Source of the DNA: Oligoflexales bacterium
Lineage (GTDB): Bacteria > Bdellovibrionota_B > Oligoflexia > Oligoflexales > Bog-1112
Length of the DNA: 64,000 bases
NCBI GenBank assembly: GCA_045106415.1
Contig: JBGCEP010000035.1
Location: 1-64,000 of the forward strand
Direction: 5' to 3'
The position numbers and the translations under genes are program-made. Of the stretch, positions 45,127-58,724 are shown piece after piece. Under the pieces are notes generated by a model. That model was not told the origin of the DNA, searched no databases, and worked only from the letters and a program-made list of their open reading frames with translations. Position 1 is the first letter of the stretch, and each line of letters starts with the position of its first letter.

Positions 45127-46173
45127 CTAATCAAGAAGGTCTGAGATTTGAGATTTAATGCTTTCGGCGAGCTCAAATACATCTTCGTCACTTAGTTTAA
45201 AAAATTGTTTGAGCATTTCGAACTTACGTTCATGAATTCTATGGGGATGTAGCATCACCCAATGGGTGAGATAATTTGCAAAAGAAACAACTTCGATCAG
45301 GCCCTCATGTGGTTCTAAATCTTGAGATTGCCGTGCCTGCCTATGATGAAAGCGACAAGTTTCTAAGACAAAATCAGGTAAACCCCAAAGAGCTGCGCCA
45401 ACCTCACCTAAAACAGAATGATCGGTAAGTCCATATTGAATTTCAACTGCAGACCATGTTTTTAAACTGCTATGTGAATACACTTCCTGTGAAATTTGAT
45501 CTACCTTTTCTGGGAAGCAAAGAGCTGCGACAATTTTTCCTATGTTGGCTAAATATCCCGCTAAGTAAGCTTCGTCTTTAGATATTTGTGGTCGATATCT
45601 TTTAGCGACTTCTTCGGCAATTGCAGCACAAATAGCAGAAGGCTTCCAAACAAGGTCAGGGTGAAAGTTTTTTGTTGGAAATTCGAATGTATGAAGAGAT
45701 GCAGATAAGACAATATCACCAAGAGACTTGGTTCCAATGAAAACCATAGCATGTTCGAGAGATTGAAATGGAGGAGCATGCCGGTCACGGGTTGCTTTGA
45801 TTCGATTTGCTGTTTTAAAAACATTACTCGCAACAATGGGCTCTTGCTTGACTGTATTTGCAAGAGCTTTTACTGGAGTATCAGGGTCTTGTAAAAGTTG
45901 TTGAACCTTCATCACAATAGAGGGGATATGAGGCAGTTGATTTTTCTGTGAAATGAGATTGAAAACACTTCCAGCATCTTTAGACATATGTTTTTCTGGA
46001 GAGTACCAATCGAATTTTCCGGCGGGGATCATAAGTGTAGAGTTGCAATCACAGTTAAACCATAAGTTTTTCCCTGAGCAAACTCGCCATCTAGAAGTCC
46101 CTGTTAAATAATCAGACTCTGTGCGAAAAACTCTTCCACAGCTTTTACAATCTTTTTGTATAGTCGTAGACAA
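45127..46173 (-). CDS. HDOD domain protein with N-terminal Cys-rich (Zn-ribbon-like) domain
   Basis: LPHIP, EPIVA..FKTAN, AYLAGYLANIGK, DHSVLG..WGLP..FHH; N-terminal CKSC..C..CDC; GGAGG RBS favours TTG start at 46173. Confidence 0.88.
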   Translation of the reverse strand: MSTTIQKDCKSCGRVFRTESDYLTGTSRWRVCSGKNLWFNCDCNSTLMIPAGKFDWYSPEKHMSKDAGSVFNLISQKNQLPHIPSIVMKVQQLLQDPDTPVKALANTVKQEPIVASNVFKTANRIKATRDRHAPPFQSLEHAMVFIGTKSLGDIVLSASLHTFEFPTKNFHPDLVWKPSAICAAIAEEVAKRYRPQISKDEAYLAGYLANIGKIVAALCFPEKVDQISQEVYSHSSLKTWSAVEIQYGLTDHSVLGEVGAALWGLPDFVLETCRFHHRQARQSQDLEPHEGLIEVVSFANYLTHWVMLHPHRIHERKFEMLKQFFKLSDEDVFELAESIKSQISDLLD

Positions 46174-46192
46174 AGCGACCTCCATAGCTACG

Positions 46193-46219
46193 TCATCGGG
46201 TATTTTTACTATGGGCTGA
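46193..46219 (-). promoter_or_regulatory. Candidate sigma28 promoter of the HDOD gene
   Basis: Minus strand TCAG-N15-CCCGATGA. Confidence 0.5.
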
Positions 46220-46344
46220 GCTTTTGTTCGCTAAGTTTCTGAAAAGATAAAACTTTATTTCCCAAACTTTAAACAGCACTTGGTGTTTGTAAATGTTTTC
46301 TCATGTTAAAGTGATTTTAGTGCTTGCTCTTTAAAGGAGATGCT

Positions 46345-47013
46345 GTGAAATTTTTGAAAAAAAGTATGTTTTTATCTTTTGTTACTAGTTTGTTATGTTT
46401 TTTGCTTTCTCAAATAAGCGTTGCTAGCTCAGTGCCTGTAGCGCAAGCGCTGCAAAAATTAAAATTATATGGAAAAAAATTAGAAGATAAAGAATACGTA
46501 AATTTTGAATTTCAGCAAGAAGTTTATCGTGCAAGCCGCAAACGTACGGTAAAAAGTAGTGGGCGTGCTTTATTTGCAAAACCGAATAAATTTCGATGGA
46601 CTTTTGATAAACCGGGCATGGGGGAATGGATATTTGATGGGAAAATGCTATTTCATCACCATGCGGAACAAAAAAAAGCAAAATCTTACAGCTTAACTTC
46701 AGGTCATATGCATGAATTTAAAAGGTTAGTGCACATGGTGCTGGATACAACTCAACTTTTAAAGGAGTTTGAATTAAGGTCAGCAAATGAAAAATCAGGA
46801 CTTTTTAGTTTTTTTCTTGTGCCTTATAAGAAGAAAAATATGGATTCGCTTGAGCTGAAATATGATCACAATCAGAGTTATCTTAAGGAGGTTGTTATGA
46901 TACTAAATGGTGGTAATACAACAACTTTATTTTTCTCAAAACCAGATTTCAAGCCTTTTTCAGTCTCAAAATTTGATTTGGATAAACGAGTGAAAATTAT
47001 AAAATCTTTATGA
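46345..47013 (+). CDS. lolA: Outer-membrane lipoprotein carrier LolA family protein
   Basis: Signal peptide, FQQ, SSGRALFAKPNKFRW, IFDGK; GTG start with AAAGGAG RBS. Confidence 0.82.
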   Translation: MKFLKKSMFLSFVTSLLCFLLSQISVASSVPVAQALQKLKLYGKKLEDKEYVNFEFQQEVYRASRKRTVKSSGRALFAKPNKFRWTFDKPGMGEWIFDGKMLFHHHAEQKKAKSYSLTSGHMHEFKRLVHMVLDTTQLLKEFELRSANEKSGLFSFFLVPYKKKNMDSLELKYDHNQSYLKEVVMILNGGNTTTLFFSKPDFKPFSVSKFDLDKRVKIIKSL

Positions 47014-47030
47014 TGGTGTAAAAAAAATTG

Positions 47031-47057
47031 TCAAGTTGTGTGATTTTTATCCGATTC
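47031..47057 (+). promoter_or_regulatory. Candidate sigma28 promoter of the PocR-sigma54 activator gene
   Basis: TCAA-N15-TCCGATTC, 30 nt upstream of the ATG. Confidence 0.5.
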
Positions 47058-47087
47058 TTTTTAAGTTGTTTTTAGAAAGAGGTCGAG

Positions 47088-48668
47088 ATGGACCATCAGC
47101 AAGTTGTTCGTTGGGAAGAGTTTGATAAAATTCATGTTGTTCGCCGTTTAAAACAACTTATAGCACGTTGGTGGCGAGTTCAGATTAACTTTACAGATGA
47201 AAAAGGTTTTTTGAGAGGTGTCCCAGAAGGGAGATTTTTTAACCCTTTGAATGATGTCTGTCAAAAGTTTACCGATGATGTTAAGGGATATCAGCACTGT
47301 ATAGGAAGTGTTCGTGATACAGCTGCTCACACACGGGCATCGAAAACAACTCGTATGGATACTTGCCATGCAGGATTTTCGACTCTATCTGTTCCTATTG
47401 AAATTGAAAACCAATATCTTGGGTGTGTTTTTGGAGATGGGTTTTTAATCGAAGAGTCAAAAACTTCTCAAATTATTAAAATTAAAAATGCATTTTTAAA
47501 ATCATTTCCGACTGAGCTCGATTGCGATAAATGGATTGATTCTATTCCTATTCTTTCGTCAAAAGATGTTGAGAATCTCACTGAATTAATTCATATGGTT
47601 GTTGAAGAAATTTTAATGGCTCAAGTCAATATTCATTACGCTGAAGAAAAAGTAGAAAAATTACAGTCGGAATTAGGAGAGAGATATAGTTTCCACAGTA
47701 TGGTTGGAAAATCATCACCTATGCAACAGCTGTACAAATTAATAGAAAGAGTTTGTGAATCGAGCGCAATTGTTCTTATACAAGGTGAAAATGGAACAGG
47801 GAAAGAACTGATAGCAAAAGCTTTGCATTATAATTCACCACGAAAAAAAGAAAATTTTCTTGCTGTGAATTGTGGGGCTTTCAATGAAAATTTACTAGAA
47901 TCAGAATTATTCGGGCATGCAAAAGGCGCGTTTACTGGTGCTATCAAAGAAAAACAGGGTTTGTTTGCTTCTGCGCATAAAGGAACTCTTTTTTTAGATG
48001 AAATTGGAGAAACATCTCTTTCAATGCAGGTAAAACTTCTACGTGTTCTGCAAGAAGGCACTTATACTCCAGTAGGAAGCACGCAAACTTTAAAGTCTCA
48101 AGCCAGGATTGTGTGCGCTACAAATAGAGATTTGCAAGCAATGGTTGTAGATAAAACATTTCGTGAAGACTTATTTTATAGATTAAATGTGATTAATTTA
48201 TCTGTGCCAGCTTTAAGAGATCGATCTGAAGATATTCCTTTGTTGACAGAAAAATTTTTGAAAAATTATGCAGAAAAAAATAAAGAAGAACAGAGACGTT
48301 TAGATCAAAGCTGCGTGCAAATTTTTTTAAGTTACGAATGGCCGGGTAACGTGCGAGAGCTAGAAAATGAGATAGAAAGATTATGTGTATTATCTCAATC
48401 AGGAGAAGAATTGAGTAAAGATCTCATTTCCCCGCGGATTTTAACTTATAAGTCCTCTTTGTCTGCAGGAAAAAAAGAAAGAGATCATAAATTTCTTTCT
48501 TTGAAAGATGCTATACAAGACTTAGAAAAAGAAATGATTGAATCAGGCCTACAAAGAACTCGTTATAATAAATCACAGTTAGCACGAGAATTAGGTATTA
48601 GTAGAGCTTCTTTGATTACAAAAGTAGAACGTTATGGGTTAGATAAAAGAAATTTTTCAGAAAAGTAA
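47088..48668 (+). CDS. Sigma54-dependent enhancer-binding protein with PocR-like sensor domain
   Basis: GENGTGKE, ESELFGHAKGAFTGA, FLDEIGE, WPGNVRELEN, Fis HTH; N-terminal C..C..CHAG PocR-like pattern. Confidence 0.9.
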   Translation: MDHQQVVRWEEFDKIHVVRRLKQLIARWWRVQINFTDEKGFLRGVPEGRFFNPLNDVCQKFTDDVKGYQHCIGSVRDTAAHTRASKTTRMDTCHAGFSTLSVPIEIENQYLGCVFGDGFLIEESKTSQIIKIKNAFLKSFPTELDCDKWIDSIPILSSKDVENLTELIHMVVEEILMAQVNIHYAEEKVEKLQSELGERYSFHSMVGKSSPMQQLYKLIERVCESSAIVLIQGENGTGKELIAKALHYNSPRKKENFLAVNCGAFNENLLESELFGHAKGAFTGAIKEKQGLFASAHKGTLFLDEIGETSLSMQVKLLRVLQEGTYTPVGSTQTLKSQARIVCATNRDLQAMVVDKTFREDLFYRLNVINLSVPALRDRSEDIPLLTEKFLKNYAEKNKEEQRRLDQSCVQIFLSYEWPGNVRELENEIERLCVLSQSGEELSKDLISPRILTYKSSLSAGKKERDHKFLSLKDAIQDLEKEMIESGLQRTRYNKSQLARELGISRASLITKVERYGLDKRNFSEK

Positions 48669-49865
48669 GCATGTTGTTTTTTTAAATATTTTTTCTTTAG
48701 AGAAAAGATAAATCCTAGGGGATGACTGCAAAAATTCACCTGATTTCGCAGGCCTTAAAAGTATCGATTCTCCTTTTTTAACAGAATTATTTTTGTCAAA
48801 AAGTGGAGTTTGTACTTCACCAAAACCTTCTTGTTTTAAAGGTCTCAAATGACAAGGATATGCAACAACTGGCGTTCGATCTTCTCCAATGGCTCCGCTG
48901 GCTGTATACCCTCCACCTTGGCAAGTAATTATACCTGACGAGGGGGTTCTTGTGGCTGTTACTCCACAAAAAACAGCAGGTTTCCCCCATCTGTGTCGAT
49001 AACGATCAAATAAATGAGGTTGCAATAACCCTGATCCAATGGTGATTTCATTAATAGAAGTGTCCTTTAATGATTGAATCAAACTTCCTGTCCCACCTCC
49101 GTTGTGAATGAAATTATCATTGCGGCAAGGTGATTCGTTTTTTATAAGATCTCTTATTTCTTTTGCATGTTTTTTTGCGTAAATTTTGAACAATCCCAGA
49201 GCTAGAGATTTTGTTTTTTGATTCTTATTAAAATCTGTTAACCCTGCGATGTGTGCGTCATAGGTCATGACACCTTTTAATTCTAATTTTTTATATTTTT
49301 TTAGTTCTTTAAGTAGATTTTTAAAACCGATCAATGCGTGAGCGGGGGATCTACGTACGCCTAGATGGATAGTATGATTAAGAATCTTTTTACGGATAGA
49401 AATATCAATATCAAAGCAAATATGAAGACTTTCCTCTAATGTCCACCATTTTTGATAGGCTCGCATTCCCTCAGGATCATCGATCATCACGATAACTTTA
49501 ACACCTTTTTCATAGCATTGAATGATGGCTTCCATAGCTTTTTGAGAGTGTAATGGATATGCGAGTAAAATATTCTGAAAACCATTTTCTACGAGTTTCA
49601 AAGTTTCCCATGGATCATAACTCATAATTCCGATGACCTCAGGGCGTTGCAATGCTTTTTCTAAAAGAAGGGGAATGCGTATGGATTTAGATGCTATGCG
49701 TATTTTTTTATTAAATTTATTTGCATGCTCACAGCAAAAATCTAGGTTTTCTTCAAATATTTCTTCACTTATAATTGCAGAGGGAAGAGGGATAGAAGAA
49801 GAATTTTTTGATAAATCTTTTAAGAAATCATTATGAGTTTTTGTTTTTTGAGGCCAAATATTCAA
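48657..49865 (-). CDS. Fold-type III PLP enzyme (DSD1/D-threonine aldolase-like, amino acid deaminase/aldolase)
   Basis: IRIASKSIR (PLP lysine), GVRRSP, GVMTYDAHIAG, NGGGTGS, EITIGSG, GFGEVQTP. Confidence 0.82.
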   Translation of the reverse strand: MNIWPQKTKTHNDFLKDLSKNSSSIPLPSAIISEEIFEENLDFCCEHANKFNKKIRIASKSIRIPLLLEKALQRPEVIGIMSYDPWETLKLVENGFQNILLAYPLHSQKAMEAIIQCYEKGVKVIVMIDDPEGMRAYQKWWTLEESLHICFDIDISIRKKILNHTIHLGVRRSPAHALIGFKNLLKELKKYKKLELKGVMTYDAHIAGLTDFNKNQKTKSLALGLFKIYAKKHAKEIRDLIKNESPCRNDNFIHNGGGTGSLIQSLKDTSINEITIGSGLLQPHLFDRYRHRWGKPAVFCGVTATRTPSSGIITCQGGGYTASGAIGEDRTPVVAYPCHLRPLKQEGFGEVQTPLFDKNNSVKKGESILLRPAKSGEFLQSSPRIYLFSKEKIFKKTTCLLF

Positions 49866-51762
49866 GATATATCCCGTGTTTTATAAATTTTAATTTAGAT
49901 AAAAATTGTTTCCCATAATAACCTGTAAGCATATATTTGGAGTGTTTGAATTGCTGAGGAGTTGAGGGAAACCAATTAACTTCAGTTTTTTTAGAATTTG
50001 AGTCTTTTAATATTGATTTGATATGTGTGAATCCATGCAGCCCATGCAAGCCTTTGTGTCGCCCAAACCCACTTCTTCGAGTGCCGCCAAAGGGAAGATT
50101 ATGATTACCTTCTGATGCCATAACATTATTTATAGAAAGGCTTCCTACTTTTAATCTTCTAGAAAAATAATTTATTTTTTCTTTATTTGATCCCCAAATA
50201 CTAGCAGATAAGCCATAGTGAGTGCTGTGAATATGTTTAATAACTTCTTCTGATGATTGAAAAGAGATAAGTGGAATTATAGGACCAAAAGTTTCCTCTT
50301 TCATGATCAACATATCAAAAGAAATATTCTCAATAATAATAGGATGTATAAGAGGGTTTTTTTTATCCCATTCTTTCCCGTATAAAATATGAGCGCCTTT
50401 TTTTATAGCGTCTTCAAGTTGAATACGAATTTTTTCTATCTGTTTAGGAAGTAATATGGGTCCATAGTCATAAGTGTGATTTTTGTTATGTCGTTCATCT
50501 CCAACTTGAATTAATTTTGCTTGATGAATAATTTTATTTTTAAATTCATTGAAGATATTTTGATGAATAAAAACAATTTCTACGGACGAGCAAGCTTGCC
50601 CTGATGTGACGCAACTTCCCCATAAAATCCCAGGAACAGCCCTAGATAGTTGAGCATCGGATAAGACAATAGCAGCGTCTTTACCACCAAGTTCAAGTTC
50701 TACTGGTATAAGTTTTTCGCTAGCTTGTTTTAATATTTTTGTGGCAGTGGACTCACTGCCAGTAAAAAATATTTTTTCAGGTCGAGATGCGATGATTTCT
50801 TCAGCAACATGGCCATCTCCATAGAAAAAATAGGCAGAGTTCTTTGGTAATATATTTATTATTTCATTCATCAGGCTTTGTAAAGGAGTCCACTCTGATG
50901 GTTTGACAAGAGTTTGGTTCCCGCATAAAAAAGAAGTTGTGAGAGTTTGTATAGCTTGATAAAAAGGGTAGTTCCAAGCTGTTATGATCAAAACTCTTCC
51001 AAGAGGTTCGAAAGATATCGATGAAGTCTTGCCAAACATCATCATTGGTGTAGCAACTTTTTTAGTTTTTAATTGGTTTTTAACTCCAATAAGCCACTTT
51101 ATATTTTCTAGAGCAGAAAATATTTCTGTAAAGACAATCTCATTGCGACTTTTACCAGTTTCTTTTTGGATGTGGTTGATAATATGATCCATGTTTTCTA
51201 GGATCCATGTGTGAATAATTTGTAAATATTGGACACGTTGAGACAAAGATGGGGGGGTGTATGGCTCTATAGAAAATTTTTCTAACAAAAAATTGTTTTT
51301 TTCTTGAGAGTGAGGATTAAGATCTTTTTTTATAGCGTTACTATATTTATTTTCACTTTTTTGTGTTGTTTGAATGCTCGATTCCCATCCCATTTTTTTA
51401 TAAATTTTATCATGAGCTTTTGAGTGTGGCTGATGAGTATAATAAAGGGTGTAGGTCACTCCTCGGAGACCCATTAAAATTTTACGAGACGTAACTCCTA
51501 TAATATCTTCTCTTTTCCTTTTTCGATGCAATGATTTTAAGGTAGAGTGTAAAATAAACATAGGTATAAAAGATAAGGTGAAGAGTAAAATCTTTAGCCC
51601 AAATCTATCAGTAGAGTTCATTGCATTGAGCATAGTTTCAATTGAAGATTGTTTTTCAGCTTCTTGAAAAGAGGGCATTGATTTGTTTGTTGGGAGTAAA
51701 CATTGTCCAACTTTACATAGACCAAGATGTTGTCTTTGGCTGAAAAGATGTAATTTTTTCAT
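49831..51762 (-). CDS. Aldehyde dehydrogenase with extra N-terminal domain of about 150 aa
   Basis: WNYPF, KPSE, FFTGS, LELGGKD, GQAC (catalytic Cys), EETFGP, PFGG; ATGA overlap with GMC stop. Confidence 0.9.
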   Translation of the reverse strand: MKKLHLFSQRQHLGLCKVGQCLLPTNKSMPSFQEAEKQSSIETMLNAMNSTDRFGLKILLFTLSFIPMFILHSTLKSLHRKRKREDIIGVTSRKILMGLRGVTYTLYYTHQPHSKAHDKIYKKMGWESSIQTTQKSENKYSNAIKKDLNPHSQEKNNFLLEKFSIEPYTPPSLSQRVQYLQIIHTWILENMDHIINHIQKETGKSRNEIVFTEIFSALENIKWLIGVKNQLKTKKVATPMMMFGKTSSISFEPLGRVLIITAWNYPFYQAIQTLTTSFLCGNQTLVKPSEWTPLQSLMNEIINILPKNSAYFFYGDGHVAEEIIASRPEKIFFTGSESTATKILKQASEKLIPVELELGGKDAAIVLSDAQLSRAVPGILWGSCVTSGQACSSVEIVFIHQNIFNEFKNKIIHQAKLIQVGDERHNKNHTYDYGPILLPKQIEKIRIQLEDAIKKGAHILYGKEWDKKNPLIHPIIIENISFDMLIMKEETFGPIIPLISFQSSEEVIKHIHSTHYGLSASIWGSNKEKINYFSRRLKVGSLSINNVMASEGNHNLPFGGTRRSGFGRHKGLHGLHGFTHIKSILKDSNSKKTEVNWFPSTPQQFKHSKYMLTGYYGKQFLSKLKFIKHGIYLEYLASKNKNS

Positions 51763-53147
51763 GAAAAACTCCTGATAACAGATTGTGAAGCCATCGATGA
51801 TAAAGCCATGACAGTAAGGCTGGGATTTATACCTGGAGCGCAAGGGAAAATACTTGAATCTGCGCAAAAAATATTCTTATGATGATGCAATTGGAAATTT
51901 TCATTAACAACCGATTGTTGATCATCTGATCCTATGCGACACCCGCCCATGAGATGAAGGCTGATAGCCATATCACTTTTGGTTGTTTGTAAACATCCTG
52001 ATTCATGATAAATTTTATCAATAATTTTAAATCCTTCATTGCGTTTTTTTAAGTCTTCATTTGAGATGTTTTTTAGTATCGTGACTTTTCCGCGATGTGT
52101 TTTGATTTCCCCAGGAGTCGTGTCTCTTATTGCAACTTCAATACAAGCTGTGTGAGAAAGATGAGTCATCCATTCTTGATGGTTAAGCCCATGTTTTGGT
52201 ATGATCATCGAAAGAGCAACAGGTCCTGCAAAAACATTTTCGAGTTTAAAGCCTTTTTCACGGAACTGAGGATCGTTAGATTTGTATGTCTGAAGAGGTC
52301 CCTCAAAAGACCTTATTTTTTCTGCATATCGAGCTAATGTAAGCCATTGTGGGTGATTATAAAAATGGTGGCCTATACTTTTTATTTTTTTATTGAAATG
52401 AGACGATTGTAATATTTTAGTATTTCCAATTGAACCTGCTGCAAGAATGAGCCGAGGAGCAGTAAATTCTTCAGTGTGACCAAGAGAGTTTCTTCCTTGG
52501 ACGGTCACGTGATCTTGATAATGCTTAATGTTGGAGACTGTAAACCCTGTATATAACCAAGAATGCGATGAAAGAGCTTCTCCTAATACAGAGTCGAGCA
52601 TAGACTGCTTGCTGCCAATTTTACAGCCACCAAGACATTCTATGCAATCATTACCATCTTGATATTGGCAATTTTTTTGAGCTCTTAATAGTGAGCCATA
52701 TTTATACCCTTGACTTTTTAGGCCTTCTTTAAAAATAGAAGCGTTTTTATTTGCGTATTTTTCGGGAATAGTCTCAGTGTGGATTTGGTTGAGTACTTTT
52801 TTGTAATATGGATCTATGGATTTAGAATTAAAAAAAGAGATGCCAGAATCTTCAGTAAATAGCTCCCATGCCATTTGATCAAAACGGTCTAAAAGACCTC
52901 CGTTAATTACAGATCCACCACCTACAACTTTGGGTCTAAGGAGTGCTAAATTCATATCTGAATTAAATTCAGCGCCTCCATCCCAAAACATATGGCTATT
53001 CATTTCCAGTTCATGTTTGGGGTATGTACGCGGCGTATAAGCAAGGCCTGATTCAAGAATAAGGCACCTCAGCCCAGCCTCAGTCAACTCTCTTGCAAAA
53101 AAAGACCCAGATATTCCGGAACCAATGATAATGGCATCCCATTGCAT
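51759..53147 (-). CDS. GMC family FAD oxidoreductase (long-chain alcohol oxidase-like)
   Basis: IIIGSGISG, VGGGSVING, CIECLGGC..GSKQS, LAAGSIG, HLMGGCRIG, ADSSIFP, GINP. Confidence 0.9.
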   Translation of the reverse strand: MQWDAIIIGSGISGSFFARELTEAGLRCLILESGLAYTPRTYPKHELEMNSHMFWDGGAEFNSDMNLALLRPKVVGGGSVINGGLLDRFDQMAWELFTEDSGISFFNSKSIDPYYKKVLNQIHTETIPEKYANKNASIFKEGLKSQGYKYGSLLRAQKNCQYQDGNDCIECLGGCKIGSKQSMLDSVLGEALSSHSWLYTGFTVSNIKHYQDHVTVQGRNSLGHTEEFTAPRLILAAGSIGNTKILQSSHFNKKIKSIGHHFYNHPQWLTLARYAEKIRSFEGPLQTYKSNDPQFREKGFKLENVFAGPVALSMIIPKHGLNHQEWMTHLSHTACIEVAIRDTTPGEIKTHRGKVTILKNISNEDLKKRNEGFKIIDKIYHESGCLQTTKSDMAISLHLMGGCRIGSDDQQSVVNENFQLHHHKNIFCADSSIFPCAPGINPSLTVMALSSMASQSVIRSFS

Positions 53148-53278
53148 AGTATGGCTCTTTATAATGAATGATCGTTGCATTTTAACATGGACTTACCATT
53201 GTGTGTATCTTTGCAAAACCTTTTTTATATGATGATCTTTTGTCTGCTATTCTTGAGAAGACTATAAAGGGGTTTATA

Positions 53279-55111
53279 ATGATGTCGTCTCAATCTTTCT
53301 GGAGTGTCATTCCTCGATTAGGATCTTGGAAACTGTGTTTAAGAGCGAGTGTTTTTTTATTTTGGGTTTATTTTATTGTTTCTCTTCTCTCTTTTCATCC
53401 CTTGGATAGTTCGTATTTTAGTGTTTCATATCCGATAAGAGACACCATGAATTATGGAGGGGTGCTAGGCGCTTGGTTGGCATCGTGGGTTGTTTATACA
53501 ACTGGCTTTTCTATATTTTTATTTTTATTAGCAATTCCTGGAATGATGATCAGAAAATATAGAAAAATATCAATCACCTTTTATCTTAGTGTCCCATTTG
53601 TTTTTATGTTTATAACGAGTTTGTTTCAATTCTCTTTTTTATATCGTGGGTACCCAATTTTATTGGGAGGTGTTTATGGGTATGAAGCCTCAAAAAATTT
53701 AGTGCATATATTGGGTTTTTTCGGTTTTTGGATTTTTAATATGACGATTTTTATTTTACCTTGGATTTTTTGCTATAAAAATAATCTTAAAAAAATTCTT
53801 ATAAAAACTTTCCAATTTTCAACAAGAAGGCCACATCTTTTGCAGAAAAGTTCAACTGTGCCCACTGAAAATATTGTACAACCTTATTCAAAAGATGATT
53901 ATTGGTCAGGGCCAAGGCAAATGCTGAAAAAATCAGAAACAACCTCTGTTCAAAATCGATCAGAGCTTGAGCAAACAAGTCAAAAAATTGTTGAAATATT
54001 AAAAGATTTTAATATAGAAGGAGAAGTCATTGGCTATGAGTGTGGGCCTGTTGTTGCAACATATCATTTTCAGCTTGCTCCAGGTATAAGGCAAGCCAAG
54101 GTTCAGACAATTTCTGATGATTTGGCTCTTTGTTTAAGAGTTGAATCTGTTTTTATATCTGCATTAGCTGAAAAAAAATCAATAGGTATTCAAGTCCCTC
54201 ATCAGCAAAGAGAACTGGTGTGTTTAGGTGATTTATTGGATATTGCTGACTTTGATCATGGTTCTCCATTATTAGTATGCTTAGGACGAGCAGCAAGCGG
54301 CAAACCTGTGACCGTTGATTTAGCTGAAATGCCGCATTTATTGATTGCTGGAGCAACAGGTTCAGGGAAATCAGTAGGGATTAATACTCTTTTAATTAGT
54401 TTATTGATGAGGGCTTCCCCTGAAGATCTTCAGATGATTCTCATTGATCCTAAACAGCTTGAACTTGCTATGTATGAGGGAATTCCTCATTTGCTTATGC
54501 CCGTATTAACAGATCCACAAAAAGCAACCGTTGCATTAAGATGGGTCGTGAAAGAAATGGAAAGAAGATATAGTGTCTTACAACAAGCGGGTGTTCGCAA
54601 TATACAATCATTTAAAACAAACCCCACAGAATCTATGCCATATTTATTGGTTGTCATTGATGAGCTCGCAGATTTGATGTTAACTGCTTCTGCAGACATT
54701 GAGCTCTTGATTCAAAGATTAGCTCAAAAAGCGAGAGCTTGTGGTATTCATATGGTGCTTGCAACACAAAGACCCTCTGTGGATGTTATTACAGGTGTGA
54801 TTAAAGCAAATCTACCATCAAGAATTGCGTATCAAGTTTTTTCTAGGCATGACAGTCGAACTATTTTAGATCAAATAGGAGCAGAGAACTTACTGGGTAA
54901 AGGAGATCTCTTGCTTATGACCCCAGGGAAAAAGAATCCTGAAAGGATTCAAAGTGCTTTTGTATCAGATGAAGAAGTTTTAAAGGTGATAGGTGAGCTT
55001 AAAACGTCTGAAATGAAGGCTGAATCTGAAGCTCTGCAGTGGATTGAGAAATATGAAGACCAAAGTGGTAAAAAATCTAAATCAAAATTAAATTCTGCAG
55101 ATATTGAGTGA
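53279..55111 (+). CDS. ftsK: DNA translocase FtsK (no C-terminal gamma domain)
   Basis: N-terminal TM region with NYGGVLGA, PHLLIAGATGSGKS, VVIDELADLM, ATQRPSVDVITG, GAENLLGKGDLL. Confidence 0.93.
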   Translation: MMSSQSFWSVIPRLGSWKLCLRASVFLFWVYFIVSLLSFHPLDSSYFSVSYPIRDTMNYGGVLGAWLASWVVYTTGFSIFLFLLAIPGMMIRKYRKISITFYLSVPFVFMFITSLFQFSFLYRGYPILLGGVYGYEASKNLVHILGFFGFWIFNMTIFILPWIFCYKNNLKKILIKTFQFSTRRPHLLQKSSTVPTENIVQPYSKDDYWSGPRQMLKKSETTSVQNRSELEQTSQKIVEILKDFNIEGEVIGYECGPVVATYHFQLAPGIRQAKVQTISDDLALCLRVESVFISALAEKKSIGIQVPHQQRELVCLGDLLDIADFDHGSPLLVCLGRAASGKPVTVDLAEMPHLLIAGATGSGKSVGINTLLISLLMRASPEDLQMILIDPKQLELAMYEGIPHLLMPVLTDPQKATVALRWVVKEMERRYSVLQQAGVRNIQSFKTNPTESMPYLLVVIDELADLMLTASADIELLIQRLAQKARACGIHMVLATQRPSVDVITGVIKANLPSRIAYQVFSRHDSRTILDQIGAENLLGKGDLLLMTPGKKNPERIQSAFVSDEEVLKVIGELKTSEMKAESEALQWIEKYEDQSGKKSKSKLNSADIE

Positions 55112-55116
55112 TGTCG

Positions 55117-56154
55117 TCATTGAAGAGATTTTAAAATTCTTTCAGAGAACTTTTCTAATGAAAAATTTTCTTGTGCTTGACTTGCTCTTTCATTACGTGT
55201 TTCCAAGTTCTCTTGTTGATATTTATGAAAATAATCTGCTATAAACATAGCTCTTTCGTGGTGCGGGATATGTTTCCATGATGCTCCAAAATCTTTTTCT
55301 ATAAGCGTTTCTTCTAAGCTTCCGACCCCTGAAGTTAAGACTGGGCAACCGCACATTAAAAATTCTTGAGCAACGCGGCATATGACTTCAGATCCAAGGC
55401 TGGAGACAACTCCAACAACAGCATTTCTCATGATTTCATTTTTATTTTCAATAATTTTTGTCGTAATGACTACGTTCTGAGCAATATTAAGATCATTAGA
55501 TTTTTTGATAATTTCATTTGCTGTTGTGTTTTTCTCTTCTCCAATAATTTTTAGGATTGTATTTTTTGGCATTCCAAATTTAAAGCTTTGAGCAAATATT
55601 TCTAAAAATTCTTTATGACCTTTCACTGGATCGAGGCGTCCAAAGATTAAAAGATAAGGAGGGTGTTGTTTCTTCTGTGTGAAAGTGTGCAAATTTTGAA
55701 CATCAAGGCCTAGAGGAATTGAAATAACTCTTTCTGGATAAGGATCGATGCCTTTTATTTTTTCAGCAATAGCATTTGATGGTGTTATTAATCTTCTTGT
55801 TTTTATATGGGATAAGAAATGTCTAATTTTATTTTGCTTGCGATCTTCACCGATAAATCTGATGATGTGCTGGTGATTTGTTATGTGTGCTAAAAATTCT
55901 TCTTGCCCTCCATAAGTAAATACAAGATCGGATTTAGTTTTGCGAATTTGAAAAAAAGAATATAGTCGTGGATTAAAGTTTTTGAGTTCTTTGACTTCAA
56001 TTTTTAATTCTTTAAAGCGTTTCGCAGCAGGTGATTTTTCTAAACAAAATACGACTTGATGATGTTGTGTTTTGAGTAAAGATTGAGCGCAGCGCACCGC
56101 ATATTCTGTGATAGCGGAATTCCATCTATTTGAAATTAAATGAAGTATTTTCAT
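55117..56154 (-). CDS. Glycosyltransferase family 4
   Basis: MKILHL, FGRLDPVKGH, SSLGSEVICRVAQE. Confidence 0.85.
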   Translation of the reverse strand: MKILHLISNRWNSAITEYAVRCAQSLLKTQHHQVVFCLEKSPAAKRFKELKIEVKELKNFNPRLYSFFQIRKTKSDLVFTYGGQEEFLAHITNHQHIIRFIGEDRKQNKIRHFLSHIKTRRLITPSNAIAEKIKGIDPYPERVISIPLGLDVQNLHTFTQKKQHPPYLLIFGRLDPVKGHKEFLEIFAQSFKFGMPKNTILKIIGEEKNTTANEIIKKSNDLNIAQNVVITTKIIENKNEIMRNAVVGVVSSLGSEVICRVAQEFLMCGCPVLTSGVGSLEETLIEKDFGASWKHIPHHERAMFIADYFHKYQQENLETRNERASQAQENFSLEKFSERILKSLQ

Positions 56155-56903
56155 AGATATCTTTCCATTTCATGAAGTTTTGAAAATTTAGTCCAGGCAT
56201 AAAAACTACTAATCATGGCATAAGTATAGCCACGAGAACCGTCAAGAAAACCCAAACGAAGAATGTATCTATTGATAAATTCAATCCAAAATCTTAGCCA
56301 AAAATTTACTGTTGTGCATTTTCTTTTGTTTGTATAGTGATTTTTTGCGACAAGTTGTGTGTATTTATTAAATCTTTCAAAGTAGTCGCAGAGATTTGTA
56401 TAACTATAATGCCATAGAACACCTTGAATATGAGATATTTTCCCAGATATGATAAGTTTTTCATGAATAGGATGTTGATAAAGGCTATTTTCTTTTTTAA
56501 AAAGTCGTATAACAAGATCTGAAGTCCTACCAAAGTTCATTTTTTTTCCTTGGAAAACTAATTTTCTTTTAATACTAAATCCTTGAAGGTGTATAGGAGG
56601 ATTTGACATGATTTTTGCAATTGATTTTTTGAGTTGATCATCTAAAACTTCGTCGGCATCAATCATAAAAATCCAGGGTGTTTTTGCTATTTTTATTGCT
56701 GCGTTTCTTTGTTGTGAGTAATCATCAAATTTACGTTTTCTGATATGTGCAGAGAATTTGGCAGCAATATGTGTTGTTTGATCTGTACTTCCAGAGTCAA
56801 GTATTAAGATGTTACTTCCAGAAGGTAAAGAAGATAGGCATCTTTCGATATTACGTTGTTCATTATATGTGATTAATACAAATGTAAGATTAGAGAAACT
56901 CAT
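56151..56903 (-). CDS. Glycosyltransferase family 2 (LPS core beta-1,4-glucosyltransferase-like)
   Basis: ITYNEQ, DSGSTD, QRN, IDADE, IHE, LGFLDG. Confidence 0.88.
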   Translation of the reverse strand: MSFSNLTFVLITYNEQRNIERCLSSLPSGSNILILDSGSTDQTTHIAAKFSAHIRKRKFDDYSQQRNAAIKIAKTPWIFMIDADEVLDDQLKKSIAKIMSNPPIHLQGFSIKRKLVFQGKKMNFGRTSDLVIRLFKKENSLYQHPIHEKLIISGKISHIQGVLWHYSYTNLCDYFERFNKYTQLVAKNHYTNKRKCTTVNFWLRFWIEFINRYILRLGFLDGSRGYTYAMISSFYAWTKFSKLHEMERYL

Positions 56904-57244
56904 GTGTCATACCTCATCTTATGGATTTTTTGAGGTTATCATATATTTGATTTTTTTCGTCGAAAAGTATCTTGGTTTAAAAAATGATAAAAACACATTT
57001 CGTTTTAGAATAAATTATTTTTTAGAATGTTATTTAAAAAATTTCACATGGGTGAAAATATTGCACGTTTTTAGATGTTGTTTTCTAATAGAAATTATTT
57101 TGATCTCATTTTTTTAAAAAATGCCTAGACTCTTTGTTTTCTTAAATGCTTTTGGTATGGCTTGCAGTTTTTAGCTGCTCATCATACTTTTGTTGAGGAT
57201 ATAGAGAAAAGAGTCTAAATAGCCTCGATAAAGGATATAGCGTT

Positions 57245-58321
57245 ATGAACCAGCTTAAAAAAACAGCATTAACAGATTGGCATACAAAAGAAGGAGCTGT
57301 GATGGCTCCATTTGCTGGTTGGAATATGCCGTTGCGTTATTCAAGTGTAATTAAAGAGCATCACGCTGTGCGTCAAAACGCTGGGGTTTTTGATGTTAGT
57401 CATATGGGTGAATTTATTGTCTCAGGTGATGATACTATGCGTTTTTTACAGAGCGTGACTATCAATGATATTACCAAGCTCAGTGTTGGTGAGGGGCAAT
57501 ACACAGCGATGTGCCAACAAGATGGAGGTATGATTGATGATTTGATTTTATATCGTGTCGCATGTAATGAAGTCTTATTGTGTGTGAATGCAAGTAATAT
57601 TCAAAAAGATTTTGATTGGTTACAGAGTCATATTAAGTCTTTTAATGTTTCTTTAAAGGATGAGTCACCTGAGTGGTCTCAAATTGCTTTGCAAGGACCC
57701 GCGAGTATTGAGTGTCTTCAAAAAGCAACAGGTATGCAAGCTGAATTGAAGTATATGGAAATTCAAAATTTCACTTGGAATCAAGAAAATACTTTCATAG
57801 CACGTACAGGTTACACCGGAGAGCAAGGTATAGAATGGTATCTTCCTCATAGTGTCGCGCTGGCAGCTTGGGAAGCTCTTGTTGGAGCGGGAGCTTCTCC
57901 AATTGGTTTAGGTGCTCGCGACACACTCCGCTTAGAAGCTTGTTACTTGCTGTATGGACAAGATATGAACGAAGCAACCTCAGCATTAGAGGCTGGTCTT
58001 GGATGGGCAACAAAGCTCGAGTATGATTTTGTAGGGCAAGCAACCTTAAAAAAGCAAAAAGAAGAAGGTGTTAGGAGGCGTATTGTCGCGTTCCAAATGC
58101 AAGACAGAGGAGTTCCTCGGGCTGGTATGGAGGTCTATCAAGGTATGGAAAAAGTTGGTGTCGTGACGAGTGGATCTGTGTTACCAAGCTTAGATGCTTT
58201 TGGTGGGTTATTGATGTTGGACCGTTCTGTTAAGATAAATGAAGACGTTTTGGTTGATGTTCGTGGTCGAAAAATAAGTGCCAAAATCATGAAAAAACCG
58301 ATGTATCAAGCTCGATTGTAA
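57245..58321 (+). CDS. gcvT: Glycine cleavage system aminomethyltransferase T
   Basis: FAGWNMP, FDVSHMGE, RTGYTGE, GLGARDTLRLEA. Confidence 0.98.
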   Translation: MNQLKKTALTDWHTKEGAVMAPFAGWNMPLRYSSVIKEHHAVRQNAGVFDVSHMGEFIVSGDDTMRFLQSVTINDITKLSVGEGQYTAMCQQDGGMIDDLILYRVACNEVLLCVNASNIQKDFDWLQSHIKSFNVSLKDESPEWSQIALQGPASIECLQKATGMQAELKYMEIQNFTWNQENTFIARTGYTGEQGIEWYLPHSVALAAWEALVGAGASPIGLGARDTLRLEACYLLYGQDMNEATSALEAGLGWATKLEYDFVGQATLKKQKEEGVRRRIVAFQMQDRGVPRAGMEVYQGMEKVGVVTSGSVLPSLDAFGGLLMLDRSVKINEDVLVDVRGRKISAKIMKKPMYQARL

Positions 58322-58331
58322 GGAGAGAACA

Positions 58332-58709
58332 ATGAATTTACCAACTGAACTACACTACACAAAAGATCATGAGTGGGTGAGTGCAACTTCTGGTGAAGTT
58401 ATGATTGGTGTTTCAGCATTTGCTATTGAACAGCTCGGCGATATTGTCCATGTGGATTTGCCGTCGGTTGGAGATGAGCTTGTGGCTGGAGACCCTTTTG
58501 GAAGTATTGAATCGACTAAAACGGTTTCAGATCTTTACTCCCCGGGAAATGGTATTGTGACAGCGGTTCACGATAGTATTTTAGAAAATCCTGAAAAATT
58601 ACAAGAAGACGCCTATCATGAAGGCTGGCTTGTTAAAATTAAGCTTTCAGAATCTATTGATGGCGCTATGTCATCAACAGATTATGAAGCTTATCTACAA
58701 GATTCTTAA
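58332..58709 (+). CDS. gcvH: Glycine cleavage system H protein
   Basis: YTKDHEW, LGDIV, IESTKTVSD (lipoyl lysine), GWL. Confidence 0.97.
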   Translation: MNLPTELHYTKDHEWVSATSGEVMIGVSAFAIEQLGDIVHVDLPSVGDELVAGDPFGSIESTKTVSDLYSPGNGIVTAVHDSILENPEKLQEDAYHEGWLVKIKLSESIDGAMSSTDYEAYLQDS

Positions 58710-58724
58710 ATTGCGTTGTGCAAT

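Follow-up and report, generated by a model that had tools for sequence, protein, structure and literature searches.

What does an operon joining a GMC flavoenzyme, an aldehyde dehydrogenase (ALDH) and a fold-type-III PLP protein do in an Oligoflexales bacterium, when a bacterial breakdown pathway for sphingolipid-type amino alcohols has not yet been worked out? The favoured answer, which we hold tentatively and at somewhat less than even confidence, is that a long-chain 2-amino-1,3-diol, for instance a sphingoid base of the sphinganine/sphingosine type, is degraded or detoxified by the operon. The three genes lie on the minus strand of a stretch of 64,000 nucleotides (hereafter, the window) and comprise the following features:

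51759..53180, minus strand: GMC-family FAD dehydrogenase, 473 aa (462 aa from the ATG at 53147)
49831..51867, minus strand: ORF of the ALDH gene, 643 aa from the ATG at 51762
51358..51762, minus strand: N-terminal helical domain of the ALDH gene, ~135 aa, homologous to free small ORFs after GMC genes
49831..51237, minus strand: ALDH catalytic core, residues ~176-643 of the 643-aa protein (Pfam Aldedh, 6.2e-99)
48657..49865, minus strand: PLP enzyme of fold-type III, 402 aa, TTG start
51759..51762, minus strand: ATGA start/stop overlap of the GMC and ALDH genes, read directly
49831..49865, minus strand: 35-nt overlap of the ALDH 3' end and the PLP TTG start, read directly

Both overlaps announced by an earlier, sequence-only reading of this DNA were thus present. 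The first is formed by the TGA stop of the GMC gene and the ATG of the ALDH gene, and the second is real if the PLP gene begins at its TTG, the sole in-frame ATG, GTG or TTG upstream of K60. The ATG at 53147, the end coordinate of the same reading, gives a protein starting with MQWDAIIIGSG, which matches the N-termini of GMC homologues. The AT-rich stretch that it described was also recovered (GC 0.34-0.36 over 46-58 kb versus 0.40-0.455 in the rest of the window) but is unremarkable given the spread of GC along the genome (mean 0.398, sd 0.030, with 164 of 1346 4-kb windows below 0.36). This block also contains LolA, FtsK and glycosyltransferase genes.

The family assignments of the three proteins held, by Pfam for the GMC and ALDH proteins and by a family profile for the PLP protein. 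The GMC protein, encoded by a gene present in single copy in the genome, matched GMC_oxred_N (1.2e-22) and GMC_oxred_C (2.6e-18) and exhibited an N-terminal GxGxxG and a His409/Asn452 pair; its matches in the PDB included large subunits of FAD-dependent dehydrogenase complexes. Four cysteines (C171, C179, C182 and C186) were invariant in an alignment with 16 homologues, and the segment that bears them aligned with the cysteine segment of a GMC enzyme neighbouring a PF13618 small subunit (hhalign probability 99.4). These cysteines probably carry an Fe-S cluster, and the enzyme probably hands its electrons to a respiratory acceptor and not to O2.

The Aldedh match of the ALDH protein covered ORF residues 207-619, and the translation contains ELGGK and GQAC, which we take to be ALDH motifs. 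The nearest solved relatives were the pea aminoaldehyde dehydrogenase 3iwk (1.3e-57) and betaine aldehyde dehydrogenases. The first ~175 residues from the ATG onwards had no Pfam match even at E<=1; they correspond to the additional ~135-aa domain followed by a low-confidence linker (residues ~136-175). This domain is homologous to free ORFs of 127-156 aa located directly after the GMC gene in other loci, and a small protein or domain occupied this place in all 14 genome loci with downstream DNA present and in all 65 metagenome loci whose downstream flank of the GMC gene reaches at least 500 bp. Judging from this homology, the N-terminal domain of the ALDH is a fused form of the small protein that partners the GMC enzyme. 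The "fused ALDH" of the earlier reading is thus more than a simple fusion, the domain being the partner of the GMC enzyme and a free ORF elsewhere. It was found fused to ALDH in ORFs at 17 metagenome loci and alone in 37 ORFs, and 119 of the best 120 database clusters covered at least 91% of the 643-aa fusion. In the AF2 model, pLDDT exceeded 80 over most of residues 9-110, and the domain contains a conserved hydrophobic segment (FGLKILLFTLSFIPMFILH) whose 19-residue Kyte-Doolittle maximum was 1.84 in the window and 1.25-2.33 in 15 homologues.

The PLP protein alone remained under the Pfam cut-off (Ala_racemase_N, 18.5 bits versus 24.1), and the profile of its family, named "amino acid deaminase/aldolase" by NCBI, matched beta-hydroxyaspartate aldolase (1.6e-23) and D-threonine aldolase (2.4e-21). 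It lies on a very long branch of the PLP tree (1.61 versus a median of 0.38) and lacks a near-invariant C-terminal T-Y-R-G motif of the family; it keeps all 47 invariant columns of the family alignment. In line with the aldolase-like label of the sequence-only reading, the fold is nearest to that of aldolases specific for D-beta-hydroxy amino acids: with the AF2 model (pLDDT 91.2), both Foldseek and VIA placed D-threonine aldolases and BhcC first. Residues were mapped onto D-threonine aldolase for Lys59, Arg157 and His193, the metal ligands His347/Asp349 being left unmapped. The PLP lysine K60 aligned with Lys59 of 4v15 and R172 with Arg157, both invariant in the family; since Arg157 binds the carboxylate, the invariant Arg172 suggests an amino-acid substrate. 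At the position of His193, the proposed base, the family has a glycine, so that the aldol cleavage proposed for the PLP enzyme agrees with the fold but not with this residue.

The missing base opens another possibility for the same class of substrates, in which the PLP enzyme would be a dehydratase/deaminase that eliminates the 3-OH, forming ammonia and a 2-oxo fatty acid but no glycine. The available text of the study of these enzymes describes His193 as kept in D-threonine aldolases and missing from D-serine dehydratase (PMC4401734). The NCBI family name is compatible with deamination, and dehydratases of the same fold scored only ~3 Z units below the aldolases. However, all four solved aldolases outranked every dehydratase in both structure comparisons, and a fatty aldehyde product would explain the frequent presence of ALDH in the gene set. 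Glycine cleavage genes argue in the same direction: gcvT, gcvH and gcvP are indeed located at 57245-61538, ~4.1 kb from the GMC start, although the proximity noted by the earlier reading, taken as gcv genes within 7 kb, recurred near the PLP gene in just 2 of 109 other loci. We thus consider dehydration rather improbable.

The preferred reading, with aldol cleavage, can be laid out as a pathway, which would be cytoplasmic and membrane-associated. The GMC flavoprotein would oxidise the C1 primary alcohol to an alpha-amino aldehyde, and the ALDH would turn this unstable compound directly into the acid. The fusion of the ALDH to the small domain suggests that the GMC product is an aldehyde passed on to it; we propose that fusion to the obligate partner of the GMC enzyme keeps the ALDH attached to that enzyme in a physical complex, and the hydrophobic helix of this partner may be inserted in the membrane. 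By CIP rules the product would be the (2R,3R), D-erythro, 2-amino-3-hydroxy fatty acid. The PLP enzyme, acting on D-amino acids, would then cut the C2-C3 bond to yield glycine and a fatty aldehyde two carbons shorter; the latter would be converted to the fatty acid and the glycine could feed the glycine cleavage system encoded close by.

The gene set is conserved across phyla, in agreement with the triad expected in other genomes. A GMC homologue adjoined the PLP gene in 15 of the best 80 related genome loci. Of the metagenome GMC loci, 26 were well flanked, with at least 3.5 kb to either side of the gene. All 26 had the small protein, 20 the PLP gene and 15 the ALDH gene; 12 had both PLP and ALDH and 3 had neither. 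One same-order relative exhibited the unfused order GMC-small-ALDH-PLP. Among relatives, the set is nevertheless rare (PLP in 6 of 41 genomes, GMC in 2 of 131 genomes of the phylum). The ALDH was absent from 11 of the 26 loci with long flanks, including 8 of the 20 with a PLP gene, and from nearly all loci in which an ALO-type oxidase accompanies the PLP gene. The core chemistry must therefore work with the oxidase and the PLP enzyme alone.

This minimal pair would also fit a scheme in which the secondary alcohol at C3 is the target of the flavoenzyme, or in which the PLP enzyme takes the first step, on the amino diol itself, the ALDH just clearing the fatty aldehyde; many GMC enzymes oxidise secondary alcohols, and the PDB matches included cholesterol and pyranose oxidases. 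The fusion of the ALDH to the small partner and the invariant Arg172 argue against this order of steps, which we regard as improbable.

As previously suggested, an ALO (lactone-oxidase-type, FAD_binding_4) enzyme is the usual partner of the PLP family, present in 39 of 85 loci. None of the 15 GMC-bearing PLP loci contained it, and the two types excluded each other. They were interspersed on the PLP tree, where well-supported branches force at least four switches. The oxidase partner of the PLP family is thus interchangeable.

The link to sphingoid bases suggested earlier is backed by ceramidase genes, which adjoin the PLP gene at 15 of the 85 loci: neutral ceramidase (PF04734) in 11, membrane alkaline ceramidase (PF05875) in 3 and one further case after a flank was lengthened. 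Several phyla are involved, the loci being named Bacteroidia, Chitinophagales, Saprospira, Bacteriovoracia, Bdellovibrionales, Parachitinimonas, Sericytochromatia and Nitrospirae, and five are of the GMC type (L008, L028, L030, L073 and L084). PLP, ALO and ceramidase genes were side by side in 3 of the 5 same-order relatives having the PLP gene. In addition, a Shewanella locus had a FadL/TodX channel upstream, Bacteroidota loci had TonB receptors and an Oligoflexia locus had an HlyIII/PAQR protein. The gene set probably degrades sphingolipid-type amino alcohols.

The same enzyme logic could apply to a soluble substrate, serinol, threoninol or another 2-amino-1,3-diol or aminopolyol, converted to D-serine-like or D-threonine-like acids. 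Polyol oxidases are found in the ALO family, the closest solved relatives of the ALDH are aminoaldehyde and betaine-aldehyde dehydrogenases, and the PLP protein of the window is strongly diverged. No ceramidase homologue was found in this genome (93.8% complete): tblastn with the ceramidase ORFs of 14 related loci returned no match at E<=1e-3. Searches with the ceramidase Pfam families had no match here but none in any of 14 control genomes either, and carry little weight. Only 1 of 80 metagenome GMC loci had an adjacent ceramidase, and in a five-locus subgroup devoid of ALDH, a Peripla_BP_6 solute-binding protein is encoded upstream of the PLP gene, which suggests a soluble substrate in those loci. 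The ceramidases flanking the PLP family across phyla, GMC-type loci included, the hydrophobic segment conserved in the small partner and the FadL and TonB outer-membrane uptake genes all speak against it, and we consider a soluble substrate unlikely, albeit the most serious alternative. The first interpretation is supported in part: the families, the conservation of the gene set and the ALO partner stand, whereas the ALDH is no simple fusion and the gcv proximity is seldom repeated in other loci.

The closest parallel is the sphBCD genes of Pseudomonas aeruginosa (SphR regulon), which, as in the window, combine a flavin oxidoreductase with a PLP "threonine-aldolase-like" protein. In the text available from LaBauve and Wargo (2014; PMC3900636), C1 oxidation of sphingosine by SphC followed by aldol cleavage by SphD into glycine plus an aldehyde with a long chain is put forward as a proposal. 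DiGianivittorio et al. (2025; PMC11893366), in the portion available, report that sphBC promote sphingosine metabolism, that sphD is dispensable for growth with sphingosine and that SphC is Tat-exported and SphB Sec-exported. The sphBCD regulon is tied to the neutral ceramidase cerN, and the PLP family of the window mostly pairs with ALO oxidase and ceramidases. Unlike sphBCD, the window has a GMC enzyme with a small partner as oxidase, an extra ALDH and no adjacent cytochrome c gene. No N-terminal signal sequences were visible in its three proteins, so the system looks cytoplasmic or membrane-bound, in contrast to the periplasmic SphC and SphB. In the order that contains a Psychrobacter carrier, true members of the window's PLP family were present in only 2 of 151 genomes; a remoter relative of ~420 aa occurred in 48 further genomes, in one case next to an ALO oxidase. 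SphD, a candidate for this sister group, probably belongs to it. The operon might thus be a new GMC/ALDH version of the sphCD-like idea of sphingoid-base oxidation and cleavage, a suggestion to which we give slightly less than even weight.

Compared with the fold-type-III enzymes D-threonine aldolase, BhcC (D-3-hydroxyaspartate aldolase) and DSD1 D-serine dehydratase, the PLP family of the window shows an identity of just 12-17%, and the sequence alignments end at ~residue 272. It has a glycine at the His193 position, a Pfam search of the PLP protein gave no PF14031 match, and in the C-terminal domain the family shows an invariant motif of its own, EGxGEVQTP. The GMC enzyme resembles the catalytic subunits of FAD-dependent dehydrogenase complexes with a small subunit, namely FAD-glucose dehydrogenase (gamma-alpha-beta), fructose dehydrogenase and gluconate 2-dehydrogenase, in its His/Asn pair, its cysteine-rich loop and the obligate small subunit encoded alongside. 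For the Burkholderia cepacia FAD-glucose dehydrogenase (BcGDH), the text available describes a 3Fe-4S cluster in the cysteine-rich loop (PMC6719666).

BetA/BetB, which convert choline to glycine betaine, likewise pair a GMC alcohol dehydrogenase with a subsequent ALDH whose substrate is an intermediate of the amino-aldehyde type. Since GMC and ALDH pairs of this kind exist, and BetA and BADH were among the weak NCBIfam matches, the three genes could be unrelated neighbours, a choline/betaine-type alcohol oxidation pair next to a D-amino-acid racemase or dehydratase, an explanation that we find very improbable. The scores against BetA and BADH are far under the equivalog cut-offs, and BetA has neither a small partner nor a PLP step. 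In eukaryotes, sphingoid bases are degraded by sphingosine kinase and then sphingosine-1-phosphate lyase: C1 is phosphorylated, and a fold-type-I lyase gives phosphoethanolamine and a long-chain aldehyde, on which an ALDH then acts. The pathway proposed for the window would share the PLP-dependent C2-C3 cut and the oxidation by ALDH of the resulting long-chain aldehyde but, in contrast to the eukaryotic route, would activate C1 by oxidation, use a fold-type-III enzyme and yield glycine.

The arrangement described in the sequence-only reading, three minus-strand genes with overlapping ends, was recovered here. The GMC stop and the ALDH start have an ATGA in common at 51759-51762, and the 3' end of the ALDH gene overlaps by 35 nt the TTG start of the gene for the fold-type-III PLP protein, this TTG being the sole in-frame ATG, GTG or TTG before the PLP lysine. 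The genes discussed below are the following:

51759-53180, minus strand: GMC gene, 473 aa, Pfam GMC_oxred_N and GMC_oxred_C
49831-51762 (counted from the ATG), minus strand: ALDH gene, 643 aa
48657-49865, minus strand: PLP gene, 402 aa, TTG start
47088-48668, plus strand: sigma-54 activator with a PocR sensory domain (PF10114, 1.3e-14)
57245-61538: gcvT, gcvH and gcvP, about 4 kb from the operon

HMM searches assigned the GMC enzyme and the ALDH, whose Pfam Aldedh match (6.2e-99) corresponded to ORF residues 207-619 of the second gene, to their families. The PLP protein taken alone gave only a sub-threshold Ala_racemase_N match (18.5 bits vs. a cut-off of 24.1), PF01168 being found on most of its homologues. 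NCBIfam gave no equivalog for any of the three window proteins. Our main reading is that the operon would oxidise C1 of a sphingoid base to the acid, which the PLP enzyme would then cleave to glycine and a fatty aldehyde.

The stretch is AT-rich, as had been noted from the sequence alone, with a GC content of 0.34-0.36 over 46-58 kb, though this lies within the spread of the genome (mean 0.398, sd 0.030; 164 of 1346 4-kb windows below 0.36). The low-GC 12-kb block (46000-58000 of the window) comprises lolA, the activator, the three genes, ftsK and two glycosyltransferase genes. Because of this composition and gene content, the block is not an obvious island, and we rejected a genomic island as an explanation. 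The longest ftsK ORF has a GTG start at 53201, on the opposite strand and 20 nt from the GMC ATG at 53180. A strong sigma-70-like site (11/12 positions) is located at 53253-53280 (+), within the 5' end of this ORF, so that the true ftsK start is probably further downstream.

The sigma-54 activator and PLP genes are convergent, sharing 12 nt at their 3' ends (48657-48668). Control of the operon by this adjacent PocR activator was considered and rejected: of the 5 matches to TGGC-N8-TGC in the whole window (7.4 expected), none lay near 53.2 kb, ahead of the GMC gene; with three mismatches the motif gave 193 matches vs. 180 expected, none of them upstream of GMC on the minus strand; and of 109 loci only one has a homologue of the activator close to the PLP gene.

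The neighbourhood survey showed that the gene set is conserved in other genomes. In the PLP-seeded survey of species genomes (562 related stretches, of which the best 80 were kept), a GMC homologue was present in 15 of these best 80 PLP loci, with one further instance in locus L087. The GMC-seeded survey of metagenomes provided 26 loci with at least 3.5 kb on both sides.

Table. Partner genes in the 26 well-flanked GMC metagenome loci
PLP: 20/26
ALDH (at least 33% identity): 15/26
PLP and ALDH both: 12/26
Neither PLP nor ALDH: 3/26

The absence of the ALDH from 11 of these 26 loci counts against the main reading. No other neighbouring family recurred in more than five of the 80 metagenome GMC loci. 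The named carriers were Bdellovibrionales, Bacteriovoracaceae, Oligoflexia, Bacteroidetes, Cytophagales, Gammaproteobacteria (including Shewanella), Parachitinimonas and Nitrospirae. The gene set is rare in the window's own lineage. Searches recovered the PLP gene from 6 of 41 relatives (0 of 15 genomes of the same family, 5 of 25 others in the order) and the GMC enzyme from 2 of 131 genomes of the phylum. The second carrier in the phylum has the same order, GMC-small-ALDH-PLP, but unfused, its proteins being 33-46% identical to those of the window. Five metagenome loci devoid of ALDH (L145:4148-5590 (+) and four similar ones) have a Peripla_BP_6 solute-binding protein directly upstream of PLP-GMC-small; this subgroup suggests a soluble substrate there and was counted against the main reading.

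Clustering the ORFs of 85 PLP loci showed that the most frequent neighbour of the PLP gene is a lactone-oxidase-type FAD oxidase (FAD_binding_4 + ALO, hereafter ALO), present in 39 of the 85 loci, usually directly downstream, and in none of the 15 GMC loci, in agreement with the earlier suggestion that the GMC enzyme stands in place of this partner. The two partner types were interspersed in the PLP tree, whose well-supported branches force at least four switches. Since they are interspersed and never occur together, the ALO and GMC oxidase modules look functionally interchangeable. In the window's own genome PF04030 was not found, and tblastn with ALO ORFs gave only weak FAD-domain matches on other contigs. 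Two same-order relatives exhibited a 443-450-aa ORF after the PLP gene (L003:2673-4025 (-) and L004:2707-4038 (-)), with neither ALO nor GMC there; this ORF had no Pfam match and no Atlas match above 0.83, and may be a third partner type or spurious.

The next recurrent neighbours of the PLP gene were ceramidases, with the neutral/alkaline type (PF04734) in 11 loci and the membrane alkaline type (PF05875) in 3. Including one seen after lengthening the flank of a relative, ceramidases were found in 15 of the 85 loci, in at least five named groups, and in 5 of the 15 GMC-type loci (L008, L028, L030, L073 and L084). PLP, ALO and ceramidase genes were side by side in three of the five same-order relatives having the PLP gene. 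As a rough estimate, assuming one ceramidase gene per few thousand, chance adjacency would concern well under one locus in 85, related genomes not being independent. Other lipid-type neighbours were a FadL/TodX channel (Shewanella), TonB receptors (Bacteroidota) and an HlyIII/PAQR protein (Oligoflexia). The HlyIII/PAQR-family membrane protein adjoins the fused ALDH in an Oligoflexia MAG (L013:11097-11750 (-)); we take this family to be grouped with alkaline ceramidases. Two results on ceramidases count against the main reading: none was found by tblastn in the window's genome (93.8% complete), and only 1 of the 80 metagenome GMC loci had one. Since searches with the two Pfam ceramidase families detected nothing in any of 14 control genomes, the tblastn negative is the only one to be counted.

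The fused ALDH recognised from the sequence alone is present in the window, but its extra domain turned out to be the small partner of the GMC gene, often free elsewhere: ALDH residues 1 to about 135 are homologous to free ORFs of 127-156 aa directly after the GMC gene in other genomes. We recovered this small ORF or domain in 14 of the 14 PLP-seeded GMC loci with downstream DNA visible and in 65 of the 65 GMC-seeded metagenome loci with at least 500 bp downstream. A single ORF joined this domain to the ALDH core in 17 metagenome loci, and 37 ORFs corresponded to the small domain alone; 119 of the best 120 database clusters cover at least 91% of the 643-aa fusion. The small domain had no Pfam match even at E<=1. 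Its model is a helical bundle (residues 9-110 mostly with pLDDT >80) for which no convincing structural neighbour was found, and one segment of it is conserved, hydrophobic and contains proline (in 15 homologues the Kyte-Doolittle maximum over 19 residues ranges from 1.25 to 2.33). A language-model search retrieved “gluconate 2-dehydrogenase subunit 3” clusters at 0.92-0.93 but the profile comparison with two PF13618 proteins was not significant; a possible relationship to the small subunits of FAD-dehydrogenase complexes is thus only a lead.

The ALDH itself (PF00171, 332 bits) contains ELGGK and GQAC, which we take to be the Aldedh motifs with the catalytic Glu and Cys. Its nearest solved relatives were aminoaldehyde and betaine-aldehyde dehydrogenases (1.3e-57 vs. 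1.3e-48 for class 3), which gives mild support to an amino aldehyde as the putative substrate. The usual place of the ALDH, after the small partner gene, is taken by a gamma-glutamyltranspeptidase gene in two loci of the GMC type (L022:3326-5014 (+) and L035:10041-11750 (+)).

Homologues of the PLP protein are numerous, with 33-39% identity over about 90% of the length, and are named in the sources “amino acid deaminase/aldolase”, “D-serine deaminase-like” or “alanine racemase”. A profile search among 1.84 billion representatives recovered 856 clusters (at 50% identity) at E<=1e-30 and 3190 at E<=1e-10. The window protein keeps 47 of the 47 invariant columns of a 31-sequence alignment, including K60, R172 and the C-terminal EGxGEVQTP. 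The proposed likeness to DSD1 and D-threonine aldolases stood for the two-domain fold (barrel and C-terminal beta domain), for the Schiff-base lysine K60, which aligns with Lys59 of the solved D-threonine aldolase 4v15 and is invariant in the 31 family members, and for R172, which corresponds to Arg157 in the HMM alignment and is invariant across the family. Work on D-threonine aldolase describes Arg157 as binding PLP O3' and the substrate carboxylate, and His193 as the proposed catalytic base of these enzymes (PMC4401734). The likeness did not extend to His193: in the HMM alignment the near-invariant G208 occupies this position throughout the PLP family, whereas 3 of 3 aligned aldolases have ..QH, and this counts against the main reading. 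Neither was PF14031 (D-ser_dehydrat), presumably the C-terminal domain of the DSD1/D-threonine aldolase family, matched in the window protein at E<=0.01, the homologues listing PF01168 only.

Sequence alignments with the solved enzymes end around residue 272, short of the C-terminal metal ligands (His347/Asp349; His/Cys in dehydratases); E346, E350 and Q352 are invariant in the C-terminal domain of the family. Over the barrel part only, the family profile matched beta-hydroxyaspartate aldolase at 1.6e-23 and D-threonine aldolases at 2.4e-21 to 3.9e-18.

Table. Structure comparison of the PLP protein model
Four aldolases: 36.3-37.1, rmsd 2.2-2.3 over about 346 residues
D-hydroxyaspartate and D-serine dehydratases: 32.7-33.9
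Alanine racemases: about 25

Considering the K60 and R172 matches together with the glycine at the His193 position, the window PLP protein is a distinct relative of the D-beta-hydroxy-amino-acid aldolase/dehydratase family, not a strict member. Its branch length of 1.61, vs. a median of 0.38, also counts against the main reading. The T-Y-R-G motif, near-invariant at the family C-terminus, is missing from the window protein (48657-48690; columns 484-487 of the PLP family alignment A1). We rejected a frameshift as the cause, since no other frame encodes the motif.

The GMC enzyme is remote from solved structures (best match 6.5e-11), and its matches include the large subunits of fructose and glucose dehydrogenases as well as cholesterol and pyranose oxidases. 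The FAD-binding glycines, a His409/Asn452 pair and four invariant cysteines (C-x7-C-x2-C-x3-C) were common to 16 GMC homologues. The GMC profile aligned with a GMC enzyme adjoining a true PF13618 small subunit (prob 99.4, E 1.8e-21), the Cys motifs falling in the same segment. The His/Asn pair is described for the GMC catalytic subunits of FAD-dependent dehydrogenase complexes, and such a Cys loop in the B. cepacia FAD-glucose dehydrogenase holds a 3Fe-4S cluster taking electrons from FAD (PMC6719666). We infer from its sequence that the window GMC enzyme would be an Fe-S dehydrogenase rather than an oxidase. The protein begins directly with the FAD-binding GxGxxG. No hydrophobic N-termini were seen, the strongest segments of the GMC (1.07) and PLP (1.08) proteins being both inside the chains, and no cytochrome c or multihaem cytochrome c gene was found among the adjacent ORFs, the neighbours being the sigma-54 activator, LolA and FtsK. 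The GMC/ALDH/PLP set is apparently cytoplasmic or membrane-located, as far as can be judged from these sequences.

In the proposed route, the GMC dehydrogenase would produce an alpha-amino aldehyde from the sphingoid base, the ALDH, tethered via the partner domain, would convert it to the acid, the PLP enzyme would cleave this acid, and the glycine could enter the gcv system. The glycine cleavage genes are indeed where the sequence-only reading had placed them; of 109 other loci, however, just 2 have gcv genes at 7 kb or less from the PLP gene, so this proximity is weak support for the last step. By our own reasoning from CIP rules, C1 oxidation of a (2S,3R) sphingoid base would give the (2R,3R), D-erythro (D-allo-threonine-like) 2-amino-3-hydroxy acid, which is the stereochemistry handled by the fold-type-III family. 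We hold the sphingoid-base reading of the window locus as a tentative one, slightly more doubtful than probable, and consider it more likely for the PLP family as a whole. A broader scenario, in which bacteria of many phyla would have in common a kinase- and S1P-lyase-free destruction of sphingoid bases, appears rather unlikely. In this scenario, C1 would be brought to the carboxylate either by an ALO-type oxidase or by an Fe-S GMC dehydrogenase held to the membrane and to the ALDH by the small helical partner, the distinct fold-type-III PLP clade would split the D-erythro-2-amino-3-hydroxy fatty acid into glycine and fatty aldehyde, and the window would represent the most integrated form, its partner-ALDH fusion channelling the reactive amino aldehyde.

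Sphingoid bases are host antimicrobial lipids; Bacteroidota, myxobacteria and some predatory bacteria also have them as lipids of their membranes. To our knowledge, their breakdown or detoxification by bacteria is unsolved, P. aeruginosa sphBCD being the sole genetic lead. Full-text literature searches (subscription journals outside scope) turned up no GMC/ALDH/PLP gene set described as acting on sphingoid bases; the idea of an oxidase acting with an aldolase is already in print, unproven. What is new here is the non-orthologous oxidase module, the obligate and previously undescribed small partner, often fused to the ALDH, the apparent cytoplasmic or membrane location, and the distinct PLP clade. 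A well-populated, uncharacterised PLP family is tied to ceramidases across phyla and occurs with two seemingly interchangeable oxidase modules, and a conserved small protein always accompanies this GMC subfamily. Expressible enzyme sets, some from cultured strains, are at hand for the long-proposed oxidise-then-aldol-cleave pathway and, if the reading is true, could be a source of D-selective aldolases for long-chain beta-hydroxy amino acids.

In P. aeruginosa, sphBC were shown to promote the metabolism of sphingosine, the product being unknown, and sphD was dispensable (PMC11893366). In SphBCD, a SphC-type FAD oxidase adjoins the PLP gene, whereas the window has the GMC enzyme there, and the cytochrome c partner and periplasmic export signals of SphBCD were not seen among the adjacent ORFs and N-termini of the window. 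In the order holding a Psychrobacter carrier, 2 of 151 genomes had the window's PLP family and 48 a more distant relative of about 420 aa. One of these relatives, a PLP protein of 421 aa whose N-terminus is signal-like (MRRRSVIFSGLGL...), is encoded directly after an ALO-type oxidase in a locus of this order (L101:1174-3776 (-)). Its match to the window's family profile spans 350 columns (prob 99.5, E 4.8e-23), and it fell in a separate group. This pair looks like a sphCD-type one, its PLP protein being a full-length but distant relative of the window's family, and SphD probably belongs to this sister group. The window GMC enzyme has the His/Asn pair of the catalytic subunits of FAD-dependent dehydrogenase complexes (H409 and N452, invariant in 16 sequences), but their multihaem cytochrome c subunit has no counterpart among the adjacent ORFs. 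The window proteins also differ from BetA/BetB, missing the NCBIfam equivalog cut-offs (TIGR01810, 48.5 vs. 732.1; TIGR01804, 233.5 vs. 668.6). The window gene set is in line with the oxidise-then-cleave logic proposed for SphBCD and adds to it.
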